Positions 25,749 through 62,784 of a DNA stretch of 64,000 nucleotides are shown here, in pieces. The notes under the pieces were generated by a model. The model worked only from the letters and a program-made list of their open reading frames with translations, was not told where the DNA came from and did not search any database. The translations under genes and the position numbers were made by a program. Every line of letters begins with the position of its first letter. Positions within the stretch are counted from its first letter, which is position 1. This stretch comes from Spironucleus salmonicida (lineage: Eukaryota). The DNA lies in NCBI RefSeq assembly GCF_000497125.1, contig NC_090603.1:310001-374000 (forward strand). Reading direction: 5' to 3'.

Positions 25749-25750
25749 TT

Positions 25751-41517: not shown

Positions 41518-42603
41518 ATGGGTTGCGCATCACCTGAGACAGTTATGAATATAGTAGACAAGTAAGCACTAGCATATTCATGTTCTGACAAAGATAAATA
41601 TTATCTAGTTGGAGAAATAGAAGGAGCAAAGATCAGATTAGCATTTGTGAAAAACTAAAACATTATGGCTAAAGGAAGATATTTAATTGACGAACATCCT
41701 ACAATTGTTACAGCACTTTTAAAATTTATGAAAAAATACGATATTAATAAAGTTAATTATTGTTGCTTGGCTCTAGCTGGATTAGTTGAAGATGGTACAT
41801 GCGAGATGACCAACGAGCATACGAATTATGTATATGACTGTTAAGATTTCTCAGTCGAACTTAACTGTCCAGTCAGTTTCATAAACGACTTCGCGGCCAT
41901 CGGTTGCGGGATTCAGTCCCACTTCTGGGACCAGATTCAGAAGGAGCAGTTCTCGAGGTCCGCAGCGGCCTCGGACACCGCGGTCTATCTGGGGGCTGGC
42001 TCCGGGCTCGGGTTGGGGTTCATCGTGAACGGGATGGTCTACCCCACCGAGGGCGGCCATATGCGGTACTCGGCGGCGTCGGAGGTGGAGTTCGCGCTGG
42101 TCGCCTACCTGTGCCATGACCTCGGCACCAAGCACGTCTCCTTCGAGCGGTTGCTGTCTGGGGCCGGGATCGGTGCGCTGTACGACTTCTTTTCAGGCCG
42201 GCCGATCTCTGCGCTCGCGGCGTTCTGTGGGGTGGAATCCACCGACGCGCGGGAGGTGCGGGAGGTCCTGAAGGCGGACATGCGGCACAACCTGAAGGCC
42301 CGGTACATCTCGGAGCAGTCCCACTCGTGCGAGGTGGCCGCGCTCGTGATGCGCGCCTTCCTGACGGTGCTGGCCCGCTTCATCGCGGAGGTGGTGGCGC
42401 TGTTCGACCCCGCGCGCGTGATCATCTGCGGGGGCATCGTGGCGAAGAACACGCACCTGCTGGACGCGGCCATGGTGGGTGTGCTGACGGGGGCCTGCGC
42501 CGGCCGCGAGCTGACCCTGGTGAAGGACGAGGAGGTGAGCCTCTTCGGCTGCTTCGCGCACATCCAGCGGCTGGATGCGGGGGTTACGAAGGCTCCCCAA
42601 TGA
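41518..42603 (+). CDS. glk: Glucokinase-family protein, copy 1 (degenerate phosphate-1 motif), 361 aa
   Basis: ALAG, MTN, INDFAA, GAGSGLG, PTEGGH, SFERLLSGAG and GGI motifs are present. The N-terminal motif reads VGEIEGAKIRL. Starts MGC. Confidence 0.9.
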
Positions 42604-44009
42604 GCATCCCCGACTTCCTGCTGGCCTGCGGCGACAACGACGTGTGCGGCGTGCAGCGGCTCTGGCGCCTCCGCAAGACCCACGACGGCCGCTTTTCCGA
42701 CGGCGCGCGCGTCTTCGAGGGCTTCTTCGGCATCCACTACGCCTGCGCTGGGAGCGCCCTGGGCACGCTCGCCGTGCTGCTAGCCAAGTGCTGCGGGCAG
42801 CTGGTGCAGCGGCCCTTCTTCTCGGCCCGCGTGACGCTGCGTGGGCGGCCCGTGCCGGAGGGGGCCGACTGCCTGGCGGTGAGCGTGTACGCGGACTTCC
42901 TCGACGGCGCGCGCTGCATCATGCGCTTCTACGACGCGGGCGGGATGCGCTACCCCTTCGGACGGCAGCTGGGCGCGGTGTGCGGGGCGGTAGCCAATCA
43001 GACCAGCGCGGCCGTGCTGAGGTGGGCAGACGGCGAGCGCGAGGGGAGCCTGCTGGAGTGATTCGACTTGCGGACCAATCTGCGCTCCAGGGGCGCACTC
43101 ACATATCCTCTCCCCGCGCCGGTCCCAAATAGTATACCCAGCGGAAGGCACTGCTCGGGCCGGAACCACCTCCTAGACATCTGCAGCATGATCAGCTTCA
43201 TCCACCCAGTTCCCGTAAATCCTCCCGCCCGCGAAAGCAGGCATTGCCAGATGACGTTCCCTGGCACATGCCCGCAAAAGTAGAAATCTGGGCTGGTAGA
43301 AGACCTCTCGCAGATGCAAGGATGCTGAAATCGCACAGGACAGACCCCGCCATGCAGATCTTCAGCACATGTAAAACATAAGCACGCATCCGGCTGGTAC
43401 CATATAGCCAAAAGTACAATCTGGCCAATTTAGAACTTTTCTCCATCCAAGCGCAGCGCATTTCCTCCCACCATACAAATTTATATAGAAAAAATAATGT
43501 TCAGTCCAAGGCCAAACTACCAGCTCTGGTGCTGGCATTGTTGATGGCTGCAGTTCTGTTCTTCCTCAACTCCCTCCAGGCGAGGACGCATATGGCGCCG
43601 AGGGCAACCACGGTGGCGATGGCGACACCGGCGATCACACCGCCGCTAACGGACGCCTGGAGGCAGACGTCATCGGAGGCGTAAAAGTCCAGCACGCATA
43701 ACGAGCACTTCGTAGCAGACGTGCACTGCGTGCAGTTCTCCTTGCAGGGCACGCAGAACTTGCCAGACTTGAAGAACGCGACGTTGCAGACGTCGCACTA
43801 TCCCTTGGCGCTGTCGTAGCTGGTGCAGTTCTCGCTCAGCTTCGTGCAGAAGTTCTCCGCGAGCTCGTAGCCGCCTTTGCAGGCTGCGCATTTGGAGCTG
43901 TCCGTGGCATCGCAAGTTTAGCAGTTCACGTTGTTCTTCTGGCAGGAGGCGTCGGACCCAGCGGCCACGCAGGCGCCACTATTGAGGTTGAAATTATCGT
44001 TGCAGGTTT
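41860..44009 (+). repeat. Left arm of ~2.15-kb inverted duplication
   Basis: Reverse complement of 59359-61510 (paired coordinates sum to 103368), with only scattered substitutions. Confidence 0.97.
42600..43061 (+). CDS. Ankyrin-repeat-like protein, copy 1, 153 aa; ATG overlaps glucokinase TGA
   Basis: MSIPDFLLACGDNDV...GFFGIHYACAGSALGTLAVLL. The five differences I found versus copy 2 are all synonymous. A homolog lies at 57105. Confidence 0.8.
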   Translation: MSIPDFLLACGDNDVCGVQRLWRLRKTHDGRFSDGARVFEGFFGIHYACAGSALGTLAVLLAKCCGQLVQRPFFSARVTLRGRPVPEGADCLAVSVYADFLDGARCIMRFYDAGGMRYPFGRQLGAVCGAVANQTSAAVLRWADGEREGSLLE

Positions 44010-44073
44010 TGCAATTTTCGACCTTGCACTCAGCGGGTACCAGACCGGGCAGCTTGGCGTTGGACTGAACATG
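43501..44073 (-). pseudogene. 5'-truncated, frameshifted CRMP copy
   Basis: 3' part nearly identical to 58788-59867. It has a 30-nt deletion between TGCAAAACC/TGCGAAACC microhomologies, and the nearby ATGs (44072, 44084) are out of frame. Confidence 0.7.
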
Positions 44074-45002
44074 ATTTTTATCATATTATTATTTAGTTAT
44101 TTATCATTAGTAATATAATTATTATTACTAAAATAAAAGTTTGTATAGATATTTTATATTAAAAATTATTAATAACAATAAATAATATTAAAGATGGAAA
44201 TCCTAAAATTAAAACTGAATATTAAGGTAAAATTGAAAATTACTTATACATATGTATATTTTCTGTATAGTAAATAATCTTATGAATTTACCCTAATTAT
44301 ATTACTTGTTTTATCAGATTTATGTTAAAAAATAAAATATCATTCTCTTATTTAATTATATAAATACTTAAAATTTTAGATATCTTCCTATTGCTATTGA
44401 GTAAAATACATTAACTAAATTTTCATTGTTAGAAAATAACTAATAAGAAAACTAATCACAAAAATATTTACGAAAAGTAGATACATTTTCAACCAAGGTA
44501 TATTTATGTTACTAAATTTTCTATCTAAACTATATCACCAATAATGTATAATTATATAATATACAGATGAATTAGCTATTAAATATATCTCTAATATTCA
44601 TAATTGCCTGATAAAATTCGTTACGTAATAAATTTTTATTTTTAATGCTAATAATATATAGTTTCTATATTAAATTTATATTAAATAGTTTAATAAGAAA
44701 TCTAATTAGTTAACAGAATCCTGCTAGTCTCATTTATTAAATTTTTGAAAGAATTACCGAGCACTGGTTGTATTATCAATCTTTAATAAATTCAACTTAT
44801 ATTTTTATAATATAAAAATTAAATCTTCATTATTTTTTATAATCCAACCATAGCTTGAAAGAATAGAACAAATTACAGTTTGATCAATTTATACAAAATT
44901 ATTAACTAATTTTTATATGAATCTTAACATTATTACACTAACTCAGATAAATTCGAATATAGAAAAAAATTATATAGTTAATTCGCTATTTTAAATAAAA
45001 GA

Positions 45003-45941
45003 TCACCTTTTACTCTTCTTAATGAAATAAAATGCTACTCCACCGCCAATTGCACCAACTAGGGCTAAAACACCAATTACGATGCCAGTAACAGCTCCAC
45101 CAGAAAGGTTGCTACCTGGGTTATCCGGTGCAGGTAAAAAGCATAAAAATCCGATTTTTTCAGCTTCATCGGTGCAATCCGAACATGTATCACCCTTGAG
45201 CTTGAAGCCAGGCAGGCAGGAACCGCAACTCTTCTTGTTATCCGAACATGTAAGGCAGTTAATCACATTCCCGCACTTGCAGCTGGTAATCTACTCCTCA
45301 CTGCCACACGCCCTAGCTGAGCCTCTCACGCACGCTTCTCCCTCTTTCTCCACAACTTTGCACTAATTTTAGCAGCCGTGGTGAATCGTGATCGTCTGTG
45401 GAAACTTGCATGTATTGCAGATCCCGCTACCTTTGGAGCAGGTCTTGCAAGACGACTAACACTTTTTGCACTGCGAGTTCTCCTTAAAATAGCCGTCCAC
45501 GCAACCCGTGCAGCTTCCGGCCGCGTCGATTGCAAATGGAATGAGGCACAGCGCGCATTTCCGTGTCTCTGAGCTGCTGCAGGTCATGCAGTTGAGCGAA
45601 TCTCCACATTTGCAGGCATCTGTCTGGCCATCGGTACAGGCGAAGCAGAAGGTTCCTGATAGCTTTTTACCGTCGTCGCAGCTTTTGCACTGAGAGCTCT
45701 CGGATCCTGTGCAGGTGCTACAGGACTGATCGCACCTGGCGCAGCTTCCGTCGCTGCTGAGGTAGTACCCAGGATTACACCCCTCGCAGGTCGCTGTGTT
45801 TGCAGAATCGCCCGAGCAGGAGGCGCAGTTTTCTTTGCAGGCGATGCAGGAAACTGTGACTTATCCCACGTTACTCGGGCAGAAGCTGGTGCCGACGCAC
45901 TTGTTGAAGGAGTTGGAGCATGTGTTAGTTGCTGACGCCAT
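45003..45941 (-). CDS. Cysteine-rich membrane protein (CRMP1-type), 312 aa
   Basis: CxxC repeats, LSGGAVTGIVIGVLALVGAIGGGVAFYFI transmembrane segment and a short KKSKR tail. Confidence 0.92.
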
Positions 45942-46565
45942 TTTAGTTAATAGTGGAATGTGATGGGTATAATATAATTATGGATGTGGGATCATAATGT
46001 TAAAATGATAGATTGGGAACTGTGATGAAATATGGTGATTGCTGGTAATATAGAATGTTAAGAAACTGGGGCTGATTTAAAGATTAATTCGGTATTCAGT
46101 TTACCACCAAGGTAAATTAAGAATGAGAACTGTCTTTATATTTTATATCTGGTGATAATTAATAATAAGAAAATAAAAAGTAGTGTAAGTTGTATACTTG
46201 AAAATGTAATGATTGGTAATATATAATAATGCTAAGTTTAGTAGAAGAAACTATCAGAATATTGCATTAGTTTCGCTACAGGTGTGGTGTACTTCAGCTA
46301 ATTTTTAGTGTAACCCAATGCTAATATAACAGTCCGAAAACCAGTAGCTAAGGGGAGAATTTGCTTAGCGTGTTATGTCATTGACCACAAATGAGATCAT
46401 TTTTTCTTCAAGTATCAATAAAACGAGTATAACTTATATTGTAATTACTGTAATAAAGTCATTATTACATGAACTCATTATGAATGGAGTTCTATTATTA
46501 TAGTCCATTCATGATAACCAGAACTTGGCATTATAGTTAAAATTAGCTATGTAATACTGCACTAA

Positions 46566-46727
46566 ATGGGTTTATTTGCAGATGAAACCGCAAGCTTTGC
46601 GCGTCTATTTCACCAATGCGCGCATTCGCGATTGCTTGCACTCCAAACTACCAGCGATGCTAATTTGACAATTTCGAGGGCGCAGAGTGTAGCTAAGCCC
46701 GCCCTGCCTAGATAAGTGCATAAATGA
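46566..46727 (+). CDS. Possible small ORF, 53 aa
   Basis: MGLFADETASFARLFHQCAHSRLL... occupies a GC-rich patch and ends 3 nt from the convergent stop. Confidence 0.3.
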
Positions 46728-46730
46728 TCA

Positions 46731-49700
46731 TCACTTCCTGGACTGGATTCCCACGAGCTGCACTCTTTCCAAGTGGCTAAGGCCCGCCATCTGCTCGTCG
46801 GTGACGTCCACTTTGCACTGGATCTGGTAGTAGAGCTGGCAGTACTGGCTGGTGCCGGCGAGGTTCAGCTGCGCGAGGCTGAGTCCGTCCGGGGTAACCA
46901 GAGAGAAGAATACGCTGAACACGGCATAGGCCTCAAGCTGGCTCGGGGTGAACGTACTGAGCGGGATGCTGGAGCAGAAGGGGAAATGACTGCATCTGCT
47001 CGCCGTCAGGTACTCCAAGATCGCGAAGAGCAGCTTGGCCGCGTTCTTCGCGTACATTTCTGCGTTGAAGAGCGTCTGCAGCGGCTGGCTGAGCGTTTGG
47101 TAGATGGCGCTGTAGACGACCCTGCTTTACGCGGGACCGCAGGCATGCTTGTAAGAGATCCTGGCAAATTCCCGCATGATGAGCTCGCCGCTGTTCTCGA
47201 GCTGGAGCAGGTAGTCGACCGAATGCGGGGCCTGCTTGTCGTCCTGCGAAAACTGGCAGAACAGGTCGAAGGCGGCCTGGTCGCTGATGGCGAGCTTCCG
47301 CCCAAGGCAGCCAGCGTAGTTGAGCAGGTACGGCGTGGGGGCCTTCTGCAGCTCGGCCATGGCATCGAACACCCTGAGGTTGAAGTTTAGGTTCTCGTTG
47401 TTGTAGACCTTGCCAAAGAAGAGCAGCATCGCGTCGGCTGACTTCTGGCAGTTGTTCTTCAGGAGGTCCAGGAAAATCTGCTCGTACTGGGGCTCGACCA
47501 TGGCCTTCTCGTAGAAATGAAGCAGGATGAACTGCTTGGCATCGGTGGAGGATCTGATGTAGAGCTTGGAGATGTACGCGCTGGATACATTTTTCTGTGA
47601 GAAGAACACCTTGATAAGTGCCTTCAGCACGGACATCGGCATGGGCTGCTCAAAGAGGATCGTAATGTCTGCCTTTGGGTCGACGCGGAGCTGGTTGGAC
47701 ATGCGCTAGGAGACATGGACCGCCATGGACGTGAACTGGAAGAAGTTCATCATGGCGTGGAGCAGGGCCAGAGAGTTGGATGCGGTCGTCATGTTGGCCG
47801 TGACCTGAATCTGCTTGAGGAAAGGCAGAATGTTTAACTCGGTCTTAATAGCCTTCTTGGAGAATAACTGCTCGTAGAAGGCCTGGTAGTGTTCCTGGCA
47901 GTCGAGCTTGACCGGCACCAGCTTCTGCAGAGACTTCGCCTGCTAGGTAACTACGGCAAGGAGCTGAGTGTGCGAGGCTATACCTGTCTCATACATGCGG
48001 CCCGAGATAGTAAGAAGACGCACCGCGAGTGTATGGAAGTTCAGCATGCCTTGGATCGGAAGGTCGACCCTGCTGGTATCGTACATCCCCACCATCTGGA
48101 CAAACCTGTCAACGAGACGCTGGATCATGTCCACGTTGATTTTAACGCACGTCATGGTAGCTGGTTCGCTTGTGACCACGTCAAAGTTGATCCTTGAGGC
48201 AAATGCGTTGCTGACGTACTGCTGGTATATCTGGGCTGGCATGTAACTCTTTCTGGCCAGCTTTTGCTCAAGATCCCGGACGCGCTTATCTTCTGATGCT
48301 TAGAATCCTATGACGGGGCTTATAGTGATAGTTGCCAAGAGCTTTCGGATGAGGGTGGCATCAAGAGTTTGGGCGTCGGTTTTCTGCTTAATAAGCTGTA
48401 TGTCGAGCATCTTTTTCCCAAGGAGGTCCACGACATCCATCACCCAGGAAAAGAAGGTGTGCTGGTAATTTGCGGACGCGTCAATGCGCTGTATGATAGC
48501 ATCTTGCAGCTGGGCCTTGGTTGAGCGGCGGGCATATTGGGCGAGCGAGAATATGGCAGTAACGCCATTCTCGGTGATAGAAACGTGCGCTTGGTCAAAT
48601 TTTAGCTGGTCGGAGATTAGGGCGGGGACGGTGGCTGATACCTTAGCGTGCGAATACTAGAGCCCGACTATCTATTACTGGAGGGCGCGAAGGAACTCAC
48701 ACACCTACAGGGACATCTCCGCGGGAATATCGTTGACGGAGTGGAAGGTAATGAGAAGCTCAAATATGGTGCTGGGAAGACCTGTGACGAGTGGCTTCGC
48801 ATCCGCGGTGGCGCGGTAGAGGGCGGAAAGTGGGCCCACCAGCCTCTGGAGGTGGGGGGCTAAGGCCTGCTTCAGTTCCGCGCAAAGGGCCACGAATAGG
48901 CACACGACCTTGGAAAGCGGCGCGGCCTGGAGCAGCAGCAGCTTCTCCTGGGCGACCGAGGTCTGCTGGACCGCAAGCATGAAGTAGCGGGCGGCCCGGG
49001 AGAGGAGGTTGAGGTCCTTATGGATGTATCCGGCCGCGAGATAGGCGGTGACGGCGGAGTAGCGCTGGTCCGAGTTGAAGAAGCGGGACTTCTTGTTGAA
49101 GAGCGCGTACTCCACCACGTGCTCCGCCTTCTCCTAGATGAGTGGCACCTGCTCCAGCTTCTCCGCGCTCCCGGGGAACAGCAGGGCGTCCATTACGGTT
49201 TGCAGGCTGGCCTTGGGCTCTCCGGTCATCCGGGCTCTGAGCTGGCGAAGCGCGTGGGGATCAAGAGTGATGTCGCTGCTTTGGCCACTGAGAGACTGGA
49301 AGTATACCATGCGGGCTGCCTGGTCGCAGCCGTACTTCTTGGCGGCGATGTAGTGGCGCTAGTCATCATGCAGATATTCAATCTAGTCCGGGCTATAGTG
49401 ATCCAGCAGGTCCACGCGGCACAGAAACTTTTTGATATTGTGGCCAACGTCCCCCGATTCAACTATGGAGAACTCATTCAGAATATCTAGCTTGTACAGC
49501 TTGGCGTAGATGGTATCGTCCGCGTCATAGGTATACCTGGCTAGCTTCCCGGCCTGCAGCATCTTGAAGGTCTCAACTATCTTTTTGCTGGGGACCTTCA
49601 TGTCGACCAGCCACTCGTGCTCGAGCTTGACGCTGTCGTACACGGCGGTGAAGCGCGCGAGCTGGATATGCTTGGAGTTACTCGTGAGGAACTTGAAGTA

Positions 49701-50177
49701 ATTTACCATGCGCGTGGCATTCTCGTGGCTAGTGGTGGCGCCAGAGGCTGCCAACTCGGCCTCTGCGCGGAAGACCTTCGCGTCCGCCTGGAACAGCTGG
49801 AAGATGACGTCGCCAACCAGCTGGGATTTGTTTCTCGGTGCCTTTCCTATGACCAGTTTGCTAAAGTCATTCTGGCTGAAAAGGTCGTAGGCCTTCGCGA
49901 ACTCCCCTTGGTCCATGGCCTGGGCAAACAGCACTGGTGGCCTGGTGGCAGCTGCCAGCTCACCAGCAAACTGTGTCTTGAACACCTTGGCAAGCGTGTT
50001 GGCGCGCTTGTAGATGTTATACACTGGGTGACAGAGGAGCTTCCTGAGGGCTTCTATGTTCTTGTGCGTCCTGATGGACCTGAAGAGTCTAGCGAGGTCG
50101 ATGTCTATCGGGACAGAATCGGATGCCAGGATGGCGTCGACAAGTCTGGTTTGCTCTTCAATGCTCTAGATCATCAT
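46731..50177 (-). CDS. Large hypothetical, probably alpha-helical protein, 1148 aa
   Basis: Six track fragments fall in one minus frame joined by TAG/TAA codons. Starts MMIQSIEEQTRL, ends AAG-TGA, with strong GC3 codon bias. Confidence 0.85.
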
Positions 50178-50594
50178 TTTTAAGGTGAAATGGATTATAT
50201 GACGGGATGATATTATGATACAATTGCAGCACATGTTCAATAAGGGCGAATAAGGAGGGAGTTGCTGTTACATTAATACAATACCCAGGTATGTTCGGTT
50301 TCGTCACGCGACCTCCAGATGCCTCTTGTCTCACGCCTAGGCCCAGGCGGACTTCAGCCCAGGTATTTATCCCCTGGCCAGAAGGTCAGGCCGCGCACGG
50401 CCATAGGGCAGGAGTGCAGCGAGGGTAATATTTTTAGGAACCCGTGCACGCCCCCAGTGGTCTGCAGAGAGCCACCCGGGCTGCCCACCGCAGGCTCGCT
50501 GGGCAGGATACCAGGGCGCATTGCTGCCAGCTCGCAAAATATTTTTGCCGTAATATATGGATTGGCGCACCCCCGCCATTCCGCAATTAGCAAA

Positions 50595-51755
50595 ATGCCC
50601 CCCAAAAGCGCCCAGCCGGTGCAGCCGCCCTTCTACTCCACGGCGCTGAACGTCGCGAACTTCGGCGCCTCGCAGGCCAAGTTCCCCATTGCCCTCGCCC
50701 CCGAGAAGCTGTCCAAGCAGAAGCTCTTCTTCGACTGCTACCAGCAGGTCTGCGCGGCCTTCAACCTCGCCTTCCTGCCCTGCTTCGCAAACCTGCTGCT
50801 GAAGCCCCAGGGCCAGACCACCAGCGTGACCATCCACTCCGCGATCATGGACCTGCCCTCCTCGCTCGCCATCGGCCTCGCCCTGGCCGAGTGCGCCGAC
50901 GTGGGCAGCCTGCGCATCATCGACTGCCAGTTCCCCGGCAACACGCTGCAGAACGTGCTCCACTTCACGCAGAACGAGAGGCAGATCCACCTGTCCTTCG
51001 AGCGCATGGCCATCGGCCCCCAGATGCTGGACTCGCTCGCCTTCATGGGCTACTTCAACCGGATGTCGCTCCGCTTCACCGACTGCACGCTGGACCAGCA
51101 GGCCCTCCAGCGCGAGCTGCAGCAGGCCCAGGCCCAGTCCTACCAGTTCCTGGGACTCACCCGCTGCGCCGTCGACCACGCGCGCCTCCTCGCGGCGCTG
51201 TACGACCCGGCGCTCTACAACTTCTCGCTGAGCGGGATCGAGCTGTTCGACGCGCCGCCCCAGCACGTCGTCCCCACGCTCAACGCAATCGTGGCCGCCA
51301 AGGCCGGGGCGCACTTCATCACGCTCGCCAGGCGCAGGTTCACGCTCGCGCTCTTCACACCCGAGTTCCAGAACCTGCGCTTCTTCGACCCAGCGACGAA
51401 GAAGAAGTACCAGCAGATCAGCGCGTACGCGGTGAACCTGGTGCTCTACGTGAGGCAGCAGCAGCACATTTTCCAGACCACAGACGCCGAAAACGGCGTG
51501 AAGAGCGTGATTGACGGGCTGGTCAGCAAGTTCCTCACCAGCTTCGCGGTGGACGACGAAGAACTCGTGGACTACCTGGGCATGAACGACGTATTTGTGG
51601 GATTCAGCGGCGCGGACGGCAACTTCTGCATGCAGAGCAAGCTTGAATATATCGGCTGCCAGGGGAGCGGCGAGGATGCGATTCTGCTCGAGGGTAGCGT
51701 GAGAGCCTGGTTCGACGGCGAAAGGCTGCTTGAGCGGGAGAGTGAGGCGTTATGA
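50595..51755 (+). CDS. Hypothetical protein, possibly leucine-rich-repeat-like, 386 aa
   Basis: MPPKSAQPVQPPFY... after a C-rich motif. Loosely LRR-like units such as SLRIIDC, MSLRFTDCTL and FLGLTRC. An in-frame ATG also exists at 50319. Confidence 0.8.
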   Translation: MPPKSAQPVQPPFYSTALNVANFGASQAKFPIALAPEKLSKQKLFFDCYQQVCAAFNLAFLPCFANLLLKPQGQTTSVTIHSAIMDLPSSLAIGLALAECADVGSLRIIDCQFPGNTLQNVLHFTQNERQIHLSFERMAIGPQMLDSLAFMGYFNRMSLRFTDCTLDQQALQRELQQAQAQSYQFLGLTRCAVDHARLLAALYDPALYNFSLSGIELFDAPPQHVVPTLNAIVAAKAGAHFITLARRRFTLALFTPEFQNLRFFDPATKKKYQQISAYAVNLVLYVRQQQHIFQTTDAENGVKSVIDGLVSKFLTSFAVDDEELVDYLGMNDVFVGFSGADGNFCMQSKLEYIGCQGSGEDAILLEGSVRAWFDGERLLERESEAL

Positions 51756-51881
51756 TTTCGCGGGTTCGCAAATTTGCTGATAGTTATCGGTTCTAGAGTA
51801 CTAATTATTATGCGAAATCTGGCTGCAAAGTTTGCATAAAATGCTGCGAAATAAACGAAAAATTTAAGTCAGAATTATGCG

Positions 51882-52985
51882 TCACCACTTCTAGGTGATT
51901 TACTGGCCGCTTAGTATGGATTTAAACGTATCTACAATGCTCCCTTTCTGAAGCTCCTTCCCAAGCCAAATTAGGCTATTTTCTCTATTTTCATATTTGA
52001 CCGCCAGCCTTTTACCATCAACAATGATATTCCCGTCTAGATCAGTTATTTACTCTTTTTTGCCTTTTGCAACAAAATAAACTAAATCATTGTTTCTCCC
52101 AACTATTATCGTACCTTTTTTAACGCGTTTGCGCATGTTTTTGACGTAACTATAAGAAGAAAAACACATTGGGTGCCTCATTGTGTAAAGTTGTTAAATG
52201 ATTTATACCAATGCTGGCACAAATACCATAAATTGCATAACAAGCTATAAAACATTATCTATGTTTCCAACTGCGTAAAGAATAATTGCGCTAGATTTGT
52301 ATGTAAATTTTTCAATAATAGCCATATCATGTGACGGAAATGTTTAAAAATGCCACTAAAAGGTAGCTATGGCACACGTAGAATAGAAAATCATGGTTAT
52401 TCCAGATAATAAAAATAATGACAATACAATAATAAAAAATGGTATTTTATTGCTGTTACCAATGTCAGACGCTACCCAAGGACAAGTATGGTCGTATTAA
52501 TAAACACAACCATATGAGCCGTGATAAACATGAGGATAACCATTTAATTAGCAAATCTCGCATGCCCCAGAGTGAATTGATACATTATCCTATTTAGGCA
52601 TAAATGAAGGTTTTGATATTATTAATTTATAGAAATTAATTAAAATCGATGTAAATAATATTAAAGATATTGCAGAAATTAACGGTGATCTTAAAATAAC
52701 AGGTGATGGTTAGCGTTGCTTATCAAAAGGAACAGAAGCAACGAACTATTGACAAAAACCAACACATTACGGAGAATATTTCGTTGTATTAACAATCGTC
52801 ACTGTAGTAGAAATAAGGTATACAAGTAAGAAAAATGGAGGGATAATTTACTTAAGTTTAAAATTTATAAAGCACTTAATATAAATTGGATATGTAGACT
52901 TGGCCTTCTATCTTAGTATGCTTATTATTATTTTAGATAAAATTAAGGCAGCAAACGAAAGAATAATAATTTTATACCCTTTCAT
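51882..52985 (-). CDS. DHHC-family palmitoyltransferase-like multi-pass membrane protein (DHTC variant), 367 aa
   Basis: Hydrophobic helices flank CEICQLNGYPHVYHGSYGCVYQYDHTCPWVASDIGNSNKIPFF. Confidence 0.82.
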
Positions 52986-53435
52986 TTTAAATCAAAATTA
53001 ATATATCAATTTATAATATATAAATACTAATATTTTAGTTGGTGAAATTTTTCATTTCAAGAATAAATCATTTTTAACACATTGTATTTTTAGTCTATAA
53101 ATAGAAATAATTTTATATTTATATAATTTAAATGATTAAATTTACATTTTATACTAAATTTTATATCTAGTTAGGTATCCTATTAATCTTATATATTATA
53201 TTATTTCTGTGTAGACATTTTTAAAATAGACCACATAACTTCTAGCCAAATGATCTTATAATATATAATTATAGCAATAAATTAAATGATCAGCATTCAA
53301 AAAAGTTCAACTGTAGATATTCATCATCGAAAATGTATTATAATCTATTACTACTCAATATTATTTCATAGAGAAGTTATCTGATCAGGAGCATATCCAG
53401 GTATCTTTATATTATCCTGCATTCAACTTCCCAGA

Positions 53436-53636
53436 ATGAGACCCATTAAATCGCTATTGATGAAGAAAGGCAAGTTTACAAAACTGATGAACAAAAGCTA
53501 TGGCATGCGATCGTTTCTGCGGGTAGGACAGTGCTACAACGCATCCGAGTCATTCGAGCTGCACCTCATCGACACCAAGGAGGTCATGACGCTGCTAACA
53601 CTCGACATTCCAGTCGAAGAGCTGATCCGGATTTGA
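53436..53636 (+). CDS. MRPI-type microprotein, 66 aa
   Basis: MRPIKSLLMKKGKFTK...EVMTLLTLDIPVEELIRI*: basic N-terminus and acidic C-terminus, like the 34.5-37 kb trio. Confidence 0.5.
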   Translation: MRPIKSLLMKKGKFTKLMNKSYGMRSFLRVGQCYNASESFELHLIDTKEVMTLLTLDIPVEELIRI

Positions 53637-53660
53637 TGCAGATTTCAAGTGAGAAATTAG

Positions 53661-54593
53661 TCACTGACGCCCAACGCGTATTTCCGCGAACGGGTTGCTC
53701 GCAAACGCCATGCTACGCCGTGTATTTTGCGGCCTGTCGCCGCTGTTCTGCATCAAAAATGCGCTGAGGCGCTCGAAAAATGCGTTCCCAGCATCTGCGT
53801 CGCCCTCGACCGCCTGGTAGCCCTGCACGAACGCGTAGATGTCGTCCCCACTCACGCCCGAAATCCGGAACTTCTGGCGCTCCTGAAGCCCGAAATTGTT
53901 GCCCTGCCGCAGCACCTGGATGCGCACGCCGGAGCCTGGCTGGAAGAACACTTCAAAGGGGCCAATTTGGACCGTAGAGGCACACTGCACGTGGTCGTTC
54001 ACTATGCGCTGGTAGGTGTTGCGCTGGAACTTCGTCAGGCAGAGCGCCCGCAGGGCCTCTAAATCAGCACCCTCGCCATCGAAGGACTCACTTAGATTGG
54101 CGCTGTTGCTGTGCTCCAGGTTGAGCAGGTTCGGCACTAGGATCTGCGTCTGCAGTGACGTGGGTGCGACGAGCTGCGTCTCGAAAATGAAGCCCAGGCG
54201 GTCGATTTTGACACAGAATGGGTCCATCTACCCCTAGTTTAGGAGGGTGTGGATGTAAGAAACGAGGTCCGCAAACGTAGCGTCGCTGACTGCAATTTGG
54301 GCTATCGATAGGTCGTCAATTCGGAGCAAAAGCTCGTCCTGAGAGAGTTAGACGGCCTTCGAGAATGATGTTACCTTTACGAGCTTAAACGGGTTCGTTA
54401 GGGAGTCGAATACTTGAATCTGGCGTTTTAGGGCAAAAATCGAGCGAGAGGCTAGCTTTTTGCTGAGGAACTTGGATGGTTTTTTCGTAATGAAGACTAC
54501 TAAAAGGTTTCGGGATTCAAAATCTAATTTGTAGGTGCTTAATGGAAATTCTGTAAGGTTTTTCGACTAAATATCGTACTAGTAAATTGTCAT
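53661..54593 (-). CDS. Hypothetical protein, 310 aa
   Basis: Open code-6 frame MTIYQYDIQSKNL... to CAG-TGA. Confidence 0.75.
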
Positions 54594-54641
54594 TTAATTG
54601 TAAAATAATTAATTAATTAGTATTATTATTATTATATAATA

Positions 54642-55115
54642 TCACTTTTCTTCATAAAATAAAAATTTTAATTTAAGGTCTCCTATGACTTTGTCGCCGT
54701 CTATTTAGATATTTTTAAGCTTTTGAGCTACCTCGTCTCCGTTAACCATATAGCCGAAAATACTTCCTTAATTTTTAATTTTGTTGCTTAATTGAACATA
54801 AAAGCCACTACCTATTCGATATTCTAGACCAGTTGCTGCTAGGGAATATTTAAACGGAGATGTGAGTGGACTTTCTGAATATAAATCCCCATGCGAGCAG
54901 AAACCAGTTCCACATTTAAAATCTCCTGACTCTAAGATATAATTTGGTTTATATCGGTGAATTTAAAGATCATTGAAATTTAAAACCGAATTCTATAGAA
55001 AATTATAAGATAACACTGATTAGTTATCATAAGTAGCAAATGTTATATTAGTTAGTGGTTTATTATTATATTCACATGAAAATTTTAATGTATAAAACTA
55101 AATTGCTACTAACAT
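54642..55115 (-). CDS. Divergent cyclophilin-type PPIase-like protein, 157 aa
   Basis: IHRYKPNYILESGDFKCGTG, YSLAATG, IGSGFYVQL and IFGYMVNGDEV follow the cyclophilin order FHR..F..QGGD..G.GG / LSMAN / NGSQFFI / VFG.V..G. Confidence 0.75.
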
Positions 55116-55379
55116 TTTTTATTCTACTAAATTATATGAGATTATATAATATTGAAAAATTATTTTGAAAAACATATGTAACCCAGTGAAATTTGTTAGA
55201 ATTTAGATAAACTGGTTTTATTCTAAGAATAAATAATAGCATATAATAAATAATACTATTTTTACTAAATATCGTTTACTTATTTATATCGTATATTAGG
55301 AATATTTTTTCGAAGCATTAGGGTAAAATTTAATTAGTAATATTATTATATTATCTTAAGTATGTAGGAATTTTTATAA

Positions 55380-55994
55380 ATGAATCATCATAAGTGGTCG
55401 GACGAAGAGATTGAAAAACTATATTCTGCTATAAAAATCTATGGCTTAGATTGGAAATAGATACAATAGAATTATTTTCAAAATTTAACACCTCTAACAA
55501 TAAAAAATAAGTATTATAAAAAAACAAAATCTAAGCAGAATGTATCAATTAAAGAAGAACTAGAAGTAAACTTTGAAAGCTCAATTTAGCGCTAAAGATA
55601 GTAAAGTAAACCGCAAAGTAGTAGTTATTAAGATATTTAACAAAGTATTTCCGTACCACCTGGAATACCCAGTTTTCAAATTTAACCAATACCAAATATA
55701 CCTTATATTTAGGACTAACAGAAACTACGAGAGATACCTTAATTTGTATAGCCTCCCATAATTTCCGATATACCATGTTCAAATAATTTATCAATAGAGT
55801 TTAATGGTGCATTAGCATCCCTTCCTTGGACAAGAAATCACTCTTTGCCATAAACAAATGAACCTAGTATAGTTATTGACGATGATAATATTGATAATAA
55901 AGATTTTGTTAGTTAGCTGATAAATACATTATAGTAAAGAAGTAATATGATGTTCTCTCCATTAATGAGCCCTGGTGAAAAAAGTGAAAATTGA
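55380..55994 (+). CDS. Myb/SANT-domain DNA-binding protein, 204 aa
   Basis: KWSDEEIEKLYSAIKIYGLDWKQIQ...TIKNKYY followed by a P/Q/S-rich region. Confidence 0.88.
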
Positions 55995-57104
55995 TATTAA
56001 TTCTATACACTATTTATTATTTTGAGATTTAATAATTCATTTTTGATTTCATTTCTTATTACTGTATATTTAAGCTATTAATAAACTGGCACTGGCTGAT
56101 GCTTATATAGACTGTAATCAACTCTATAATCACTTTATGTATTTCTTAAAATAGGAACTAGCTTTATTTAATAAGCTTAAACTCATCATATCTAAGTTTT
56201 AGTATAAAAACATCAATTCAATAAAAATTAGATTTTGGAATTTTCTTTAATTATTAATTAGACTATATTTAATAGAATAGCTATTTTTATATAGATATTG
56301 CTAATATTTCCATCAATAGCTTAAAATAGTTAGGATATTAAATCCTATAAATATTTATGAAGGCACTGATAATATTGTAAAACAAAATATTATTATTTTC
56401 TTACTAGAATAGATATTTTAGCTACATAAGCAAAATTTTACAATAAAACATAAATTTTATTTAACAAGTAATCGTAGTTTATATAAAATTATCTTGCTTG
56501 TAACCCATGTAGTCCTTTTTTTGGTATTATTATAAAGTGTATGCTTTTTATTCGTTGATTTTTTTCTAATAACCCGATTATTATATTCCTATGTTTTTAA
56601 CTACTGCTATCTTATATTTTAATTTTATTTAAACAAATTTGTTTTGAACTCTGTATGGTATATTTTTCAGATTCTTCTAAAAATTTCATGCTATTTTCAT
56701 TTTATAAGGCTAGCAATGTTACTATTTTAATATTAGACTAGTTGAATAACGAGATGCAGAATAATTAAATTTTTGTGTGATGCATTGTTAAATCATTAAT
56801 GATATTTATTAGTCACGTATCTAGTGTTGCATAGAAACTAATTATATAATTAGAATAATAATATTGATATATTTAATATAATTTATTCTCTCTGTTTAAA
56901 CTGTACGTTTCTTATATTTTTTTAGAAAAATAAGAATGTATTTTAATATTTTTACTACAGAGAAACTATTAATCGCAATAGAAATTACCATAGGACTCTA
57001 CAATTTACCTCATTGGTTTTTTATAGTAGTCAATATTACATTTTTTTTAATAATATTATAGTTATTATATACTATACTACAAATTATATTAGCTTATATC
57101 TAAA

Positions 57105-57617
57105 ATGAACTAAAAATAAAAAATATCTCTAATAAATTCAATTAAGTAAAATGATTATTTTCAACTATAGAAAATGACAACAATATAACTAAAATTCTAT
57201 GAGAAGCGTAAATTTTCATAAGCATGTATTTATCCTGGTTTCTTACCTATACATTATGCTTGCGCCTTCAAATCTATATAAATTTTAGAATTACTTTTAA
57301 ACACTTAAGTAAATTAACTTTCAAAATTTAATTTTTTTAGTTCTAAATATCAACTTTTTGGTTACCAAGTAAAGTCTAAATTGGATGCATTATAAATATG
57401 TGTTTTTGGTGATTTTTAAGAAGGAGCGGAGTTAATAATTTCGTATATTGTTGAACATAAGATGATTTATAAAAATGGAAAAGGACTTGTAGACTGCTGC
57501 CTGTATGCAAATAATTTTGTTGGAAATTGGATGCTAGATAGTGGATTTGCATGCTAATTTATGTCAAGTTCAGTTCGTGATGATTACAAGGAGGTCGGAA
57601 GGTTTTTAGGTAGCTGA
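57105..57617 (+). CDS. Ankyrin-repeat-like protein, AT-rich stand-alone paralog, 170 aa
   Basis: YPGFLPIHYACA..ILELLL..FFSSK...LDALQICVFGDFQEGA aligns with FEGFFGIHYACA..TLAVLL..FFSAR...ADCLAVSVYADFLDGA. Confidence 0.8.
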
Positions 57618-57881
57618 GTATATGAAATAAGTATGTATGATGAATGTGATTGATTTTTATTATTAATTACTAAACTGTGAGATATACTTTACTTATATAT
57701 TATAAAAAGGTATAATCTATTTAGATCTTTTTATATATTAAATTTAATTGCTAATATTGATATTTAAGTTATATTACTAACTTATATATTGTAAAATATA
57801 TATAAAAATAAATTTTTAATAACTTAAAAATAAATAGTACGTGCATATAGTTATATATTAATTTATAGTTATATTATCAAA

Positions 57882-58046
57882 ATGATGCCAAAATAGAATA
57901 CTGTTGCAACATTCGAAATAGCCTTTTCGATTGGATATTTACTTATTACAGCATTTTTTGCTAGTTTCATACTATACTAACTTTTCAAAGGTGCTAAAGT
58001 CACAAAAAGAGATTTAGGTTTTGAAATAATAGATGACCTTATCTGA
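57882..58046 (+). CDS. Small single-pass membrane protein, 54 aa
   Basis: MMPKQNTVATFEIAFSIGYLLITAFFASFILYQLFKGAKVTKRDLGFEIIDDLI*. Confidence 0.55.
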
Positions 58047-58787
58047 TGATTTATTTTTATGAGCATTTTGATATTAGTTTCTTAGCAGTAATCATTTACT
58101 AATAATTGATGTCTACTCTTTGGTTTTACCAATATTTTATATAAAAATAAACAAATTCATATTATTAAAATCAAATTGTTACACCTGCAATATTTTAGTG
58201 TATCTTCAAGTTGAAGCAATTTTTATGTTGAACCTAATACTAATGGGGAGTAGGTATTTTTATTTCTACATAGTAATCTGCCATTAGTTCATATCTAAAT
58301 CAAGTATATTATATTTATAGACTAGTTAAATATACTTTATATTATTTTACAAAATTTGCTTCAAGAGAAACTTATAAATTTAGATGAAAAATGCAACTAA
58401 ATCACATTTAACTTATGTCCTATCATCTATATCTCCCTGAATAAATTGAAACCCAGTTTAACCAAATTATTTCATTTACTATTACTATTAAAATTGTATT
58501 TGCTTCTTACCTGATAAATCCATCTTTTTCGTAAACCAGGTTATATTTTATATATTATTTTAAGTTCCTGTAAGTAGACTCAGAAAAAGCGTAAAATTGT
58601 ACAGATGAATTTTTAGTATTTACGAACAAATACGTATTATTACTGCAATTACTTAAAAGTAGTGTGTAAATTTGTGATTTACATTTACTACTAAAATCAA
58701 AGATAAAATGTACTACCTCAAAATTATTACCATAATTGGATTATTTTATCCTAATCACAGCAATAGTATTATTTCATTTCAATCAAA

Positions 58788-59867
58788 ATGTCCTGCCATA
58801 CCGATAAAACAAATTGCTTACTCTGCTCAGATGATACCCAATCTGGAACTTGTTCGTCCTGCAACCCAGGTTATACCCTCGCTACAGACGCCTGCGCAGA
58901 CTCCTGCGCCCTTATAATTCTCGTAGACGGATCCTGCAACGCTAATTCTGACTGCACCGACACCAAAAACTGCGAAGACTGCTTCGGTACTGCTGGAGAA
59001 TGCAGAAAGTGCAAAGCACCGTCTACGCTCGAAAATAACGTATGCGCCCCAGCAGTCGAAGACTGCAAGACAGGGTCTACTCTGATTGAAAATTGCAAAA
59101 CATGCGACTCCTCAACCCCAACTACCTGTGCAACCTGCGAGGCCGCATTCACACTCTACTAATAAGTTTGTATCGCAAATGAAGCCTGCAAAACTGATAC
59201 TAACTGCAAAACCTGCGACACTACCGACCCGAAAATCTGCAAAACCTGCAACGATGACTCCGTGCCAGAGTCTGGTGTCTCCTGCCCAGTGCCCGTCCCA
59301 GCTGAGTGCAAGGTCTAAAACTGCAAAACCTGCACCGCTGGAGACCCAAATACCTGCGAAACCTGCAACGATAATTTCAACCTCAATAGTGGCTCCTGCG
59401 TGGCCGCTGGGTCCGACGCCTCCTGCTAGAAGAACAACGTGAACTGCTAAACTTGCGATGCCACGGACAGCTCCAAATGCAAAACCTGCAAAGGCGGCTA
59501 CGAGCTCGCGGAGAACTTCTGCACGAAGCTGAGCGAGAACTGCACCAGCTACGACAGCGCCAAGGGATAGTGCGACGTCTGCAACGTCGCGTTCTTCAAG
59601 TCTGGCAAGTTCTGCGTGCCCTGCAAGGAGAACTGCACGCAGTGCACGTCTGCTACGAAGTGCTCGTTATGCGTGCTGGACTTTTACGCCTCCGATGACG
59701 TCTGCCTCCAGGCGTCCGTTAGCGGCGGTGTGATCGCCGGTGTCGCCATCGCCACCGTGGTTGCCCTCGGCGCCATATGCGTCCTCGCCTGGAGGGAGTT
59801 GAGGAAGAACAGAACTGCAGCCATCAACAATGCCAGCACCAGAGCTGGTAGTTTGGCCTTGGACTGA
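58788..59867 (+). CDS. Cysteine-rich membrane protein, 359 aa
   Basis: Many NCKTC/CxxC repeats, VSGGVIAGVAIATVVALGAICVLAW transmembrane segment and a cytoplasmic tail. Confidence 0.92.
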
Positions 59868-61510
59868 ACATTATTTTTTCTATATAAATTTGTATGGTGG
59901 GAGGAAATGCGCTGCGCTTGGATGGAGAAAAGTTCTAAATTGGCCAGATTGTACTTTTGGCTATATGGTACCAGCCGGATGCGTGCTTATGTTTTACATG
60001 TGCTGAAGATCTGCATGGCGGGGTCTGTCCTGTGCGATTTCAGCATCCTTGCATCTGCGAGAGGTCTTCTACCAGCCCAGATTTCTACTTTTGCGGGCAT
60101 GTGCCAGGGAACGTCATCTGGCAATGCCTGCTTTCGCGGGCGGGAGGATTTACGGGAACTGGGTGGATGAAGCTGATCATGCTGCAGATGTCTAGGAGGT
60201 GGTTCCGGCCCGAGCAGTGCCTTCCGCTGGGTATACTATTTGGGACCGGCGCGGGGAGAGGATATGTGAGTGCGCCCCTGGAGCGCAGATTGGTCCGCAA
60301 GTCGAATCACTCCAGCAGGCTCCCCTCGCGCTCGCCGTCTGCCCACCTCAGCACGGCCGCGCTGGTCTGATTGGCCACCGCCCCGCACACCGCGCCCAGC
60401 TGCCGCCCGAACGGGTAGCGCATCCCGCCCGCGTCGTAGAAGCGCATGATGCAGCGCGCGCCGTCGAGGAAGTCCGCGTACACGCTCACCGCCAGGCAGT
60501 CGGCCCCTTCCGGCACGGGCCGCCCACGCAGCGTCACGCGGGCCGAGAAGAAGGGCCGCTGCACCAGCTGCCCGCAGCACTTGGCTAGCAGCACGGCGAG
60601 CGTGCCCAGGGCGCTCCCAGCGCAGGCGTAGTGGATGCCGAAGAAGCCCTCGAAGACGCGCGCGCCGTCGGAAAAGCGGCCGTCGTGGGTCTTGCGCAGG
60701 CGCCAGAGCCGCTGCACGCCGCACACGTCGTTGTCGCCGCAGGCCAGCAGGAAGTCGGGGATGCTCATTGGGGAGCCTTCGTAACCCCCGCATCCAGCCG
60801 CTGGATGTGCGCGAAGCAGCCGAAGAGGCTCACCTCCTCGTCCTTCACCAGGGTCAGCTCGCGGCCGGCGCAGGCCCCCGTCAGCACACCCACCATGGCC
60901 GCGTCCAGCAGGTGCGTGTTCTTCGCCACGATGCCCCCGCAGATGATCACGCGCGCGGGGTCGAACAGCGCCACCACCTCCGCGATGAAGCGGGCCAGCA
61001 CCGTCAGGAAGGCGCGCATCACGAGCGCGGCCACCTCGCACTAGTGGGACTGCTCCGAGATGTACCGGGCCTTCAGGTTGTGCCGCATGTCCGCCTTCAG
61101 GACCTCCCGCACCTCCCGCGCGTCGGTGGATGCCACCCCACAGAACGCCGCGAGCGCAGAGATCGGCCGGCCTGAAAAGAAGTCGTACAGCGCACCGATC
61201 CCGGCCCCAGACAGCAACCGCTCGAAGGAGACGTGCTTGGTGCCGAGGTCATGGCACAGGTAGGCGACCAGCGCGAACTCCACCTCCGACGCCGCCGAGT
61301 ACCGCATATGGCCGCCCTCGGTGGGGTAGACCATCCCGTTCACGATGAACCCTAACCCGAGCCCGGAGCCAGCCCCCAGATAGACCGCGGTGTCCGAGGC
61401 CGCTGCGGACCTCGAGAACTGCTCCTTCTGAATCTGGTCCCAGAAGTGGGACTGAATCCCGCAACCGATGGCCGCGAAGTCGTTTATGAAACTGACTGGA
61501 CAGTTGAGTT
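59359..61510 (-). repeat. Right arm of ~2.15-kb inverted duplication
   Basis: Reverse complement of 41860-44009. Confidence 0.97.
60307..60768 (-). CDS. Ankyrin-repeat-like protein, copy 2, 153 aa; ATGA overlap with glucokinase
   Basis: Protein identical to 42600-43061. Confidence 0.8.
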   Translation of the reverse strand: MSIPDFLLACGDNDVCGVQRLWRLRKTHDGRFSDGARVFEGFFGIHYACAGSALGTLAVLLAKCCGQLVQRPFFSARVTLRGRPVPEGADCLAVSVYADFLDGARCIMRFYDAGGMRYPFGRQLGAVCGAVANQTSAAVLRWADGEREGSLLE

Positions 61511-61838
61511 ATTTTGAAAATTATTGGCTGTCGTATATATAATTGGTATTTTCATTCGTCATTTCGCATTTATTAGCCTCAATAGGTCCAGCTAATGCCA
61601 GGCAGCAACAAGTGAGATGCTTGATACCATACTATTTTAAAAACGAAATTATGGCTGAAACTAGTGTGGGGTGATCTTCTGTAAGATAGTTAGCCCTAAA
61701 TATGATGCTACCATCTTTCATTAATGCTAATCTGAGATTTGTTCCGCCTATATCGCCAACAATACAAATGTGCGAATTCAAGCCCTTTTGCGATTGCGGA
61801 TGAGCGATAATAATCTACGATTAGTTCACACAGCCCAT
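60765..61838 (-). CDS. glk: Glucokinase, copy 2 (intact motif), 357 aa
   Basis: MGCVNQ...IVGDIGGTNLRLAL...ALAGPI...MTN...INDFAA...GAGSGLG...PTEGGH. Confidence 0.93.
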
Positions 61839-61992: not shown

Positions 61993-62784
61993 ATGGGATG
62001 TGGAATCGACGCCAAAATTTTTTTCGACTCTATAGACCACGTTCCAGCGTATTTAACCAAAAACATAGCGTCCCAGCAGCAAAACGCCGCGCGCCACCCG
62101 CTCCCCCGCACATTCACGTCCTTCCAAATCGATCAGCACCCCGTCCAGTTCCAGCCTTTCAAGGCCCCAGAGGTGAACGAGGAGTTCTACAAGCTATCGG
62201 GCACGCAGAAGCTGGGATATTAGCGCTTTCTGGACGTGGTGCAGGCCAAGTTCATTCACGTGCGCGTGAAGGAGCTCGCTGAGTACGTTTTCAGCTGCAA
62301 GTCCTTCAGCGACCGAGCGAGCTACTGCACCAGCTACAGCTTCGTCACGAAGCCCATTTCGCGCGAGGAGTACGTCCAGATCCAGTACGTGATGCACCAC
62401 TGGAAAATCGTGCAGCTGTACCCGATTCTGGCGCTATTTCTGATCGCAGATGTGCTGCACCAGTACGCGATAACGTACCAGGAGCTCCTGAAGGCGTTTT
62501 AGGCACATTTCGGCTCCACCGAGAACGTGTTCATACGCAACTTCCAGATCTCGAAGAAGCAGCTGCATCATAAGGGCACTATCGAATTCAAGGCCCTGCT
62601 GGCCAAAATAGCCGAAATCAGCGAGCTTTTCCCGGAGCAGAACCCGTTCCAGGACGAGAGCTGTTACAGCGATACGCTGATGCGGGCGTTGGACAGCGAT
62701 ATGAATTTCCCGCTTGTGAGCACCCTGACGCGCCTGGAGCCGCTCGCGGTCGGTGTGTGCAGCAAGGAGACCAGTGCGGAGTGA
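61993..62784 (+). CDS. Hypothetical protein with N-terminal MGC, 263 aa
   Basis: Three track fragments joined by TAG codons. Ends GAG-TGA. Confidence 0.8.

Follow-up and report, generated by a model that had tools for sequence, protein, structure and literature searches.

The window analyzed here is a stretch of 64,000 nucleotides (nt) of the Spironucleus salmonicida genome (NCBI RefSeq assembly GCF_000497125.1, contig NC_090603.1, positions 310,001 to 374,000 of the forward strand). It carries two glucokinase genes in opposite orientation, and we found that one of them, copy 1, has lost the residues of the phosphate-1 motif that are invariant among its relatives, and that the 3′ two-thirds of the pair have been made nearly identical by gene conversion. 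By a small degree, we lean toward the reading that copy 1 is a used, catalytically impaired or non-catalytic paralog, with copy 2 as the active enzyme and the Met-Gly-Cys (MGC) start of both proteins as a lipid signal. The features concerned are the following (positions count from the first letter of the window).

41518..42603, plus strand: glucokinase copy 1 (P0001), 361 amino acids under NCBI table 6, with three TAA codons read as glutamine
41518..41604, plus strand: N-terminal extension of copy 1, 29 residues, beginning Met-Gly-Cys
41611..41631, plus strand: degenerate phosphate-1 motif GEIEGAK of copy 1 (D33E, G35E, T37A)
60765..61838, minus strand: glucokinase copy 2 (P0002), 357 amino acids, with six TAA/TAG codons read as glutamine
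61737..61757, minus strand: canonical phosphate-1 motif GDIGGTN of copy 2

Translation followed NCBI table 6, in which TAA and TAG encode glutamine and TGA is the sole stop. Both proteins matched the Pfam family PF02685 (Glucokinase) above its curated cut-off of 22.1 bits, copy 1 with 129.6 bits (E 1.7e-37, profile match spanning residues 30-317) and copy 2 with 150.2 bits (E 9.2e-44); copy 2 also matched E. coli Glk (PDB 1q18) with an E value of 5e-21. The ATG of copy 1 at 41518 is the earliest in frame and has an AT-rich, TATA-like stretch on its 5′ side, and TATA-like, A-rich bases precede the start codons of both copies, each of which is the earliest plausible one. A-rich bases before start codons have been described for S. 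salmonicida (PMC3916229), and the window, with its single-stop code, AT-rich spacers and genes for cysteine-rich membrane proteins (CRMPs), agrees with the descriptions in the same source. Aligned to each other by BLASTP, the two glucokinases are 86% identical across 332 residues with zero gaps. As the original prediction had stated, they are almost the same from the segment LNCPVSFINDF to the C-terminus, where only three codons differ (copy-1 codons 166, 240 and 270), and their N-terminal parts diverge: 42 of the 86 aligned residues there are identical, and the extensions in front of the domain (29 residues in copy 1, 25 in copy 2) cannot be aligned apart from MGC.

Four motifs of the family, NDF with its Asp, EGGH, G-[TS]-G-L-G and GGI, are present in both copies, and those of copy 1 lie inside the tract of gene conversion described below. 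By analogy with E. coli Glk, we take them to be the catalytic base, the glucose-binding site, the phosphate-2 motif and the adenosine motif, respectively. About 12 residues near the C-terminus, including a conserved KGR/Phe segment, are absent from both copies. With all catalytic motifs kept, copy 2 is probably a working ATP-dependent glucokinase.

The near-identity of the 3′ parts extends beyond the glucokinases, which lie at the outer ends of an inverted repeat composed of two arms (no strand assigned).

41863..44013: arm A, with the 3′ 741 nt of glucokinase copy 1, a small open reading frame (ORF) termed ORF-X, and a CRMP remnant
59355..61505: arm B, with the 3′ end of a full CRMP gene, ORF-X, and the 3′ 741 nt of glucokinase copy 2

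The arms are 2151 nt long, differ by 14 mismatches and no gaps (99.35% identical) and are separated by a spacer of 15,341 nt. Measured over 60 nt at a time, identity between the two genes is 60-80% up to about 41860 and 97-100% beyond, which places the edge at about 41863; the upstream and flanking non-coding DNA of the two genes can no longer be aligned. The glucokinase share of the tract is the last 246 codons (741 nt), which encode the large domain. We calculated nonsynonymous and synonymous divergence (dN and dS) by the Nei-Gojobori method with table 6, separately for copy-1 codons 30-115 (the 5′ part) and 116-361 (the 3′ part). The 5′ part gave a dS of 1.67, which is saturated, and a dN of 0.34, and the 3′ part gave a dS of 0.005 and a dN of 0.004. 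Such a contrast in dS between the inside and the outside of the tract is therefore the product of non-allelic gene conversion, occurring once or repeatedly, between old inverted paralogs. With conversion ending at codon 116, the N-terminal lobes, which would bind the phosphates of ATP, appear to have been left to diverge for a long time. Conversion may stop where the sequences become too different to pair, and the tract edge may be held in part by selection against transfer of a dead loop to copy 2.

An exhaustive HMMER search returned 5282 relatives at E values up to 0.001, among which the sole close one is P0003, the 270-residue database form of copy 1. The next is P0122, with 37% identity; P0122 and P0270, both named Glucokinase of Spironucleus salmonicida, are 32-37% identical to the copies in the window. 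In a quick IQ-TREE analysis (LG+G4, branch support by the approximate likelihood-ratio test SH-aLRT only, 40 rows chosen from 387 collected proteins), copies 1 and 2 group together (support 100) behind a long stem branch of 0.8 and have P0122 and P0270 as their sister group (83). All four fall inside a Hexamitinae clade (99), which in turn falls within a diplomonad clade that includes Giardia muris (95). This placement indicates that the glucokinase gene is an old resident of the lineage and no recent bacterial import.

The phosphate-1 motif had been predicted to be GEIEGAK in copy 1 and GDIGGTN in copy 2, and both were located at the positions listed above. In order to judge the weight of this difference, we aligned both copies with 149 homologues, i.e. 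the best 150 of the HMMER search minus P0003. The D, G and T of the loop, which in actin-fold sugar kinases is needed for Mg-ATP binding, as the original prediction had pointed out, are invariant in all 148 homologues that cover it, and copy 1 alone has E, E and A. It also has L at the P89 column, which holds P in 138 of the 149 homologues and in copy 2. Conservation reaches 85% or more in 36 columns. Copy 2 matches 30 of them, and none of its six misses (W to Y, T to S, A to V, L to A, one deleted F, and P to E) falls in a catalytic motif. Copy 1 misses the same six and four more, namely the D, G and T of the loop and P89. All four losses specific to copy 1 lie in the unconverted part, three of them within one five-residue loop, and the core columns L30, I34, L41, F70, C83, A87, G88, T98 and N99 are kept. 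A search of the N-terminal part of copy 2 against a 90% cluster database matched only the two window proteins, and the exhaustive HMMER search gave P0003 (that is, copy 1 itself) as the only close match and no further relative of the GEIEG type.

The loop of copy 1 would thus gain two acidic side chains and lose its threonine, and copy 1 is most likely unable to bind or position Mg-ATP. Since the large domain has been copied from the active enzyme, folding and glucose binding should nevertheless be retained. A protein that binds glucose and leaves Mg-ATP unbound could act as a regulator, as a pairing partner of copy 2, as a glucose-binding subunit or sensor, or on its own.

We read copy 1 as a gene in use because it is apparently transcribed and its divergent part looks constrained. 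The dN/dS comparison of the 5′ parts that had been proposed as a check came out at about 0.2, a pairwise average with dS saturated; the excess of dS over dN has the look of constraint, and the saturation limits what can be made of it. A value of about 0.3 for copy 1 by itself results from hand arithmetic, in which dN was split 14:3 on the saturated values with no fitted model. Despite a nucleotide divergence of about 40%, all 86 codons of the 5′ part align without insertions or deletions. With P0122 as outgroup, codons 30-115 contain 14 changes unique to copy 1 and 3 unique to copy 2 (p 0.013). Two further outgroups gave 13:2 and 12:3, and the other four gave 11:5, 10:5, 9:6 and 7:10, none of these four being significant. 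The tip lengths in the tree are 0.14 for copy 1 and 0.003 for copy 2. These comparisons suggest that copy 1 evolves faster than copy 2 in the unconverted part.

Evidence on transcription came from the contigs of four runs of one study, which were aligned to 41679-61678 and whose depths cannot be ranked. The contigs contain 0.96, 0.95, 0.90 and 0.70 of 115 sampled coding words of copy 1. The part common to both copies, 741 of 1086 nt, could supply only about 0.68 of the words, and three of the runs must therefore contain most of the copy-specific ones. Poly(A) or poly(T) stands next to Illumina adapter at the loose contig ends 44080, 46721, 53650 and 54629, and contig cover tracks the genes. 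Contig breaks occur at 41863, the point of divergence between the two genes, and in each run two records extend beyond the ends of the aligned stretch, which are situated in the copy-specific parts. At the arm-differing sites 42015, 42326, 61042 and 61132, the letters of both arms are present. The runs are taken to be poly(A) RNA, and copy 1 appears to be transcribed. An unexpressed copy 1 would have counted against the original prediction; the contigs of the four runs, with their poly(A)/adapter ends, argue against such a case, in runs that come without an RNA record.

The MGC start with an extension before the domain, which had been predicted for both copies, is present in both. Its codons are ATG GGT TGC in copy 1 and ATG GGC TGT in copy 2, so that the third positions of both the Gly and the Cys codon differ. 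P0270 also starts with MGC, followed by a 21-residue extension, and P0122 begins directly at the first strand. Of 326 other collected homologues that begin with Met and have the loop motif, five start with MG and one with MGC, the latter being P0270. Retention of an N-terminal Gly-Cys through divergence to about 35% identity points to a function. Most likely, MGC is a lipidation or targeting signal, with S-palmitoylation of Cys3 and with or without N-myristoylation of Gly2. Both copies would then probably be lipid-anchored, and the signal would place the glucokinases at a membrane, possibly that of the flagella; a sensor role of copy 1 may be envisaged.

Proteins with an N-terminal Gly-Cys are known from the same group of organisms: alpha-19 giardin of Giardia has been reported to be dual-acylated, and for annexins 3 and 12 of S. 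salmonicida a similar signal was predicted and flagellar localization was found (PMC4863580). In the available parts of that report, no glycolytic enzyme with a dual-acylation signal is named. Unlike these proteins, the copies in the window have Pro or Gln at position 6.

Two further observations in the window touch on acylation. A gene of the DHHC palmitoyltransferase family (PF01529, E 1.7e-10) lies in the spacer at 51882-52985 on the minus strand under run contigs. Its motif reads DHTC instead of DHHC, and it has only few of the cysteines that normally flank the motif; we treat its position between the glucokinases as a coincidence. An ORF of 263 amino acids at 61993-62784 on the plus strand, without a Pfam family, has the third MGC start of the window. 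This ORF and glucokinase copy 2 are transcribed divergently from ATGs that lie 154 nt apart.

A number of points weigh against the reading of copy 1 as a used, non-catalytic and lipid-anchored paralog. The constraint estimate is weakened by the saturation of dS and by pairwise averaging, and the excess of changes in copy 1, toward which five of the seven outgroups lean, is absent with two of the seven and reversed with one of them (7 vs 10). The frame of copy 1 is open, as had been noted; this is weak evidence because only TGA stops translation, and shuffles of its first 115 codons are equally free of an in-frame TGA in 7.5% of cases. The sugar-binding NDF and EGGH, whose retention in copy 1 had been put forward in its favor, are present as described, but they lie inside the conversion tract. 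Their source is copy 2, and they cannot testify to selection on copy 1. As to transcription, the four runs have no RNA record and their RNA status was guessed from the poly(A)/adapter ends and the gene-following cover. The share of 0.70 in run X4 is no more than the shared part could give, and no listed contig piece directly displays the 184 nt specific to copy 1. The absence of the 12 or so C-terminal residues makes the activity of copy 2 likewise something that we infer. Finally, myristoylation patterns of the PROSITE type ask for a small uncharged residue (S, T, A, G, C or N) at position 6. This is where Pro stands in copy 1 and Gln in copy 2, neither of which fits; among the three paralogs that start with MGC, only P0270, with Ala, does. 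Palmitoylation of Cys3 alone, or a divergent transferase specificity, is possible.

The strongest alternative, unlikely in our estimate yet to be taken seriously, is that copy 1 is a functionless, slowly dying duplicate, whose promoter still fires and whose 3′ two-thirds are repaired by conversion while the 5′ third decays. Such a course would be in line with the confinement of all four copy-1-specific losses in conserved columns to the unconverted part, with the faster evolution there (14 vs 3 unique changes, tips of 0.14 vs 0.003) and with the 7.5% chance of an open frame. Arm A itself provides a parallel in its CRMP remnant, a clearly dead fragment that conversion has kept alike. On the other hand, a dN of 0.34 is far under a dS of 1.67 in the 5′ part, and its 86 codons have remained free of insertions and deletions although the flanking non-coding DNA can no longer be aligned. 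Decay would also have spared the columns of the structural core and placed three of four losses in a single five-residue loop. MGC has been kept with synonymous changes in both the Gly and the Cys codon, in an extension the rest of which is unalignable, and the gene is present in contigs that resemble poly(A) RNA.

Copy 1 might instead still be a kinase, which we regard as improbable, either tolerating its altered loop or using the loop, with its two Glu and its Lys, for another phosphoryl donor or sugar. Its catalytic Asp, EGGH, phosphate-2 and GGI motifs are intact, though maintained by conversion, and its 5′ part looks constrained. Diplomonads use unusual glycolytic donors such as pyrophosphate. 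An ADP-specific glucokinase is, moreover, listed for S. salmonicida (PMC3916229). Opposed to this are the invariance of D, G and T in 148 of 148 homologues and the two extra acidic side chains in a phosphate-binding loop, which should repel phosphate; the G104D exchange in Arabidopsis HXK1 was reported to abolish activity (PMC6306471).

We give hardly any credence to an origin of the shared C-terminus in misassembly, in a chimera, in bacterial contamination or in a recent transfer of GC-rich DNA: the GC content at third codon positions (GC3) does change from 0.24-0.33 in the 5′ parts to 0.90 in the tract, and the older database entry for copy 1 (P0003) does end at residue 270, an arm-differing site, but the 14 differences between the arms mean that this is not a collapsed repeat, the letters of both arms occur in the contigs of independent runs, the reading frame and the family alignment are continuous across the tract boundary, the full-length proteins cluster with Hexamitinae glucokinases (SH-aLRT 99) and not with bacteria, the C-terminal part has the clade-specific EGGHxR[FY] and G-x-x-G-C, and the best bacterial matches are merely about 30% identical. 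Given the tree and this low bacterial identity, we reject the idea that the GC-rich part came from bacteria recently or is a contaminant.

A more far-reaching reading goes beyond the one that we favor. In it, copy 1 would be a glucose-binding subunit without catalysis, anchored by lipid and paired with the active copy 2 at a membrane, possibly that of the flagella, where it would tune or report glucose phosphorylation. Conversion would keep the sugar site and the pairing surface of the two proteins matched, and selection would hold the edge of the tract at codon 116, which would prevent the dead ATP loop from ever reaching the working gene. As a whole, this scheme is tentative and rather unlikely.

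Other systems offer both likenesses and differences. Both copies match the model of PF02685, the family of bacterial-type (group A/B) glucokinases (EC 2.7.1.2, ASKHA fold) that includes E. coli Glk (PDB 1q18/1sz2), P0122 and P0270; unlike these relatives, copy 1 is without the D, G and T of phosphate-1, which 148 of 148 relatives have. A near-identical pair of sugar-kinase paralogs in another flagellated parasite is formed by TbHK1 and TbHK2 of Trypanosoma brucei. Recombinant TbHK2 was inactive alone and active in hetero-oligomers with altered kinetics, and part of it is found in the flagellum (PMC8256278). The trypanosome proteins belong to the hexokinase family and not to PF02685. TbHK1 and TbHK2 differ mainly at the C-terminal end, with the ATP motifs kept; the window pair, by contrast, differs across the whole N-terminal lobe, including the ATP loop. 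Plants have hexokinase-like proteins that are catalytically dead and sense glucose. In Arabidopsis, the AtHXK1 variants G104D and S177A are without catalysis and have kept glucose signaling (PMC6306471, PMC8256278). Both AtHXK1 G104D and G35E of copy 1 put an acidic residue in place of a glycine. We take G104 to lie in the equivalent phosphate-1 loop. Forms of the AtHXK1 type are engineered mutants or paralogs of eukaryotic hexokinases and not members of PF02685, and we know of no PF02685 protein with a signaling role. In a narrow literature search, which covered sources in part and cannot prove absence from print, we found neither a non-catalytic member of PF02685 nor a glucokinase with an MGC start described. 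In the searched supplements of PMC3916229, glucokinase is named only in pathway and family lists. Overall, a pseudo-enzyme paralog of a sugar kinase is a known kind of protein; what would be new here is its occurrence in PF02685 and its mosaic structure made by conversion.

The conversion tract also stands out by its base composition. GC3 is 0.24 in the 5′ part of copy 1 and 0.33 in that of copy 2, compared to 0.90 in the shared part, and the shift takes place no more than about 60 nt from the edge of the tract. Each of the three coding regions that the tract contains has a GC3 near 0.8-1.0. The composition of the protein follows: Gly, Ala, Arg and Pro (GARP) make up 0.31 of the C-terminal part and Phe, Tyr, Met, Ile, Asn and Lys (FYMINK) 0.20, compared to about 0.22 and 0.33 in the paralogs P0122 and P0270, which the N-terminal parts resemble in their amino-acid make-up. 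Identity to P0122 is 72 of 224 residues for the C-terminal part and 44 of 92 for the N-terminal part of copy 2. This pattern would fit GC-biased gene conversion. In at least three other genes of the window, at 31096-33129 (plus strand), 880-2814 (plus strand) and 12829-14499 (minus strand), GC3 climbs from about 0.2-0.35 at the 5′ end to 0.75-0.9 toward the 3′ end. These genes are in no repeat within the window, which speaks against a simple explanation by GC-biased conversion.

Palindromes of the primate X chromosome are homogenised by GC-biased gene conversion from arm to arm (PMC8981503) and, like the arms described here, have arms that are more than 99% identical and more GC-rich than their flanks. 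In contrast to them, the arms in S. salmonicida are only 2.15 kb long, the edge of the tract lies inside a gene and has created a mosaic enzyme pair, and the contrast in GC3 is extreme (0.24-0.33 vs 0.90). GC-rich regions with high GC3 have been noted in this species and were left unexplained by Andersson et al. 2007 (PMC1805757). The present locus, where GC3 goes from about 0.3 to 0.9 inside one gene at a tract edge, bears on that question.

Besides the glucokinases, the repeat contains ORF-X and CRMP sequences.

42600..43061, plus strand: ORF-X of arm A, 153 amino acids, whose frame the GC3 periodicity (0.92-0.96) enters at about 42600
60307..60768, minus strand: ORF-X of arm B, with a protein identical to that of arm A
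43501..44103, minus strand: CRMP remnant at the inner end of arm A, 5′-truncated and without a Met in frame
58788..59867, plus strand: full CRMP gene, 359 amino acids, with its 3′ 513 nt in arm B

The ATG of ORF-X overlaps the TGA of the glucokinase gene (ATGA), and the five differences between the two ORF-X copies are all synonymous and at third positions. ORF-X ends in AGTGA and the glucokinase gene in AATGA. AGTGA has been described as a stop/poly(A) signal in S. salmonicida (PMC3916229), and its presence at the stop of ORF-X but not at that of the glucokinase means that the two may therefore be on one mRNA. For ORF-X we found no Pfam family, and the ESM Atlas gave best values of at most 0.88 with low recognition; an AlphaFold model from the single sequence has a mean pLDDT of 44.9. 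Two longer ORFs in the arms, of 497 amino acids (42575-44068) and 691 amino acids (58718-60793), were discarded because they appear to result from reading GC-rich coding DNA antisense or out of frame. Both are rich in Arg, Ala and Pro, have the wrong GC3 phase and contain residues that are altered by the arm differences.

Matches of the CRMP sequences to the Pfam VSP family are weak and under the curated cut-off, with an E value of 4.7e-4 for the remnant and the full gene also below the cut-off. Run contigs over the full CRMP gene start at 58769-58805. At 44080 (plus strand), the poly(A)/adapter end lies 14 nt past a TGA at 44066 and implies a plus-strand transcript that runs antisense through the CRMP remnant of arm A.

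Elsewhere in the window, an ORF of 1180 amino acids at 46731-50273 (minus strand), without a Pfam family, is covered more deeply by contigs than any other part of the stretch examined, and its stop is followed closely by the poly(T) loose end at 46721. Small contig indels occur at 50452-50496. At 51341 (plus strand), a contig in each of the four runs departs from the window sequence and continues with 66-173 other letters beginning GTGAGT; a paralog, a difference between strains or a splice-like joint could be the cause. At 25640-26163, a 12-nt unit is repeated in tandem more than 30 times, just downstream of an ORF of 959 amino acids (22714-25593).

Overall, the locus may show how a sugar kinase has in nature come to exist in two forms, one working and one not, the latter tied to its partner through the continual overwriting of two-thirds of its sequence. 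It would offer a clean system for the role of a glucokinase body without ATP chemistry, be it in sensing, regulation or scaffolding, in an organism that can be transfected and in whose energy metabolism glycolysis is central. If the tentative reading of copy 1 as a subunit of copy 2 were true, no earlier pseudo-enzyme would be known among bacterial-type glucokinases, and the pair would exemplify partner matching maintained by conversion. In addition, the presence of MGC in three glucokinase paralogs suggests that glycolysis may take its first step at a membrane in this flagellate.

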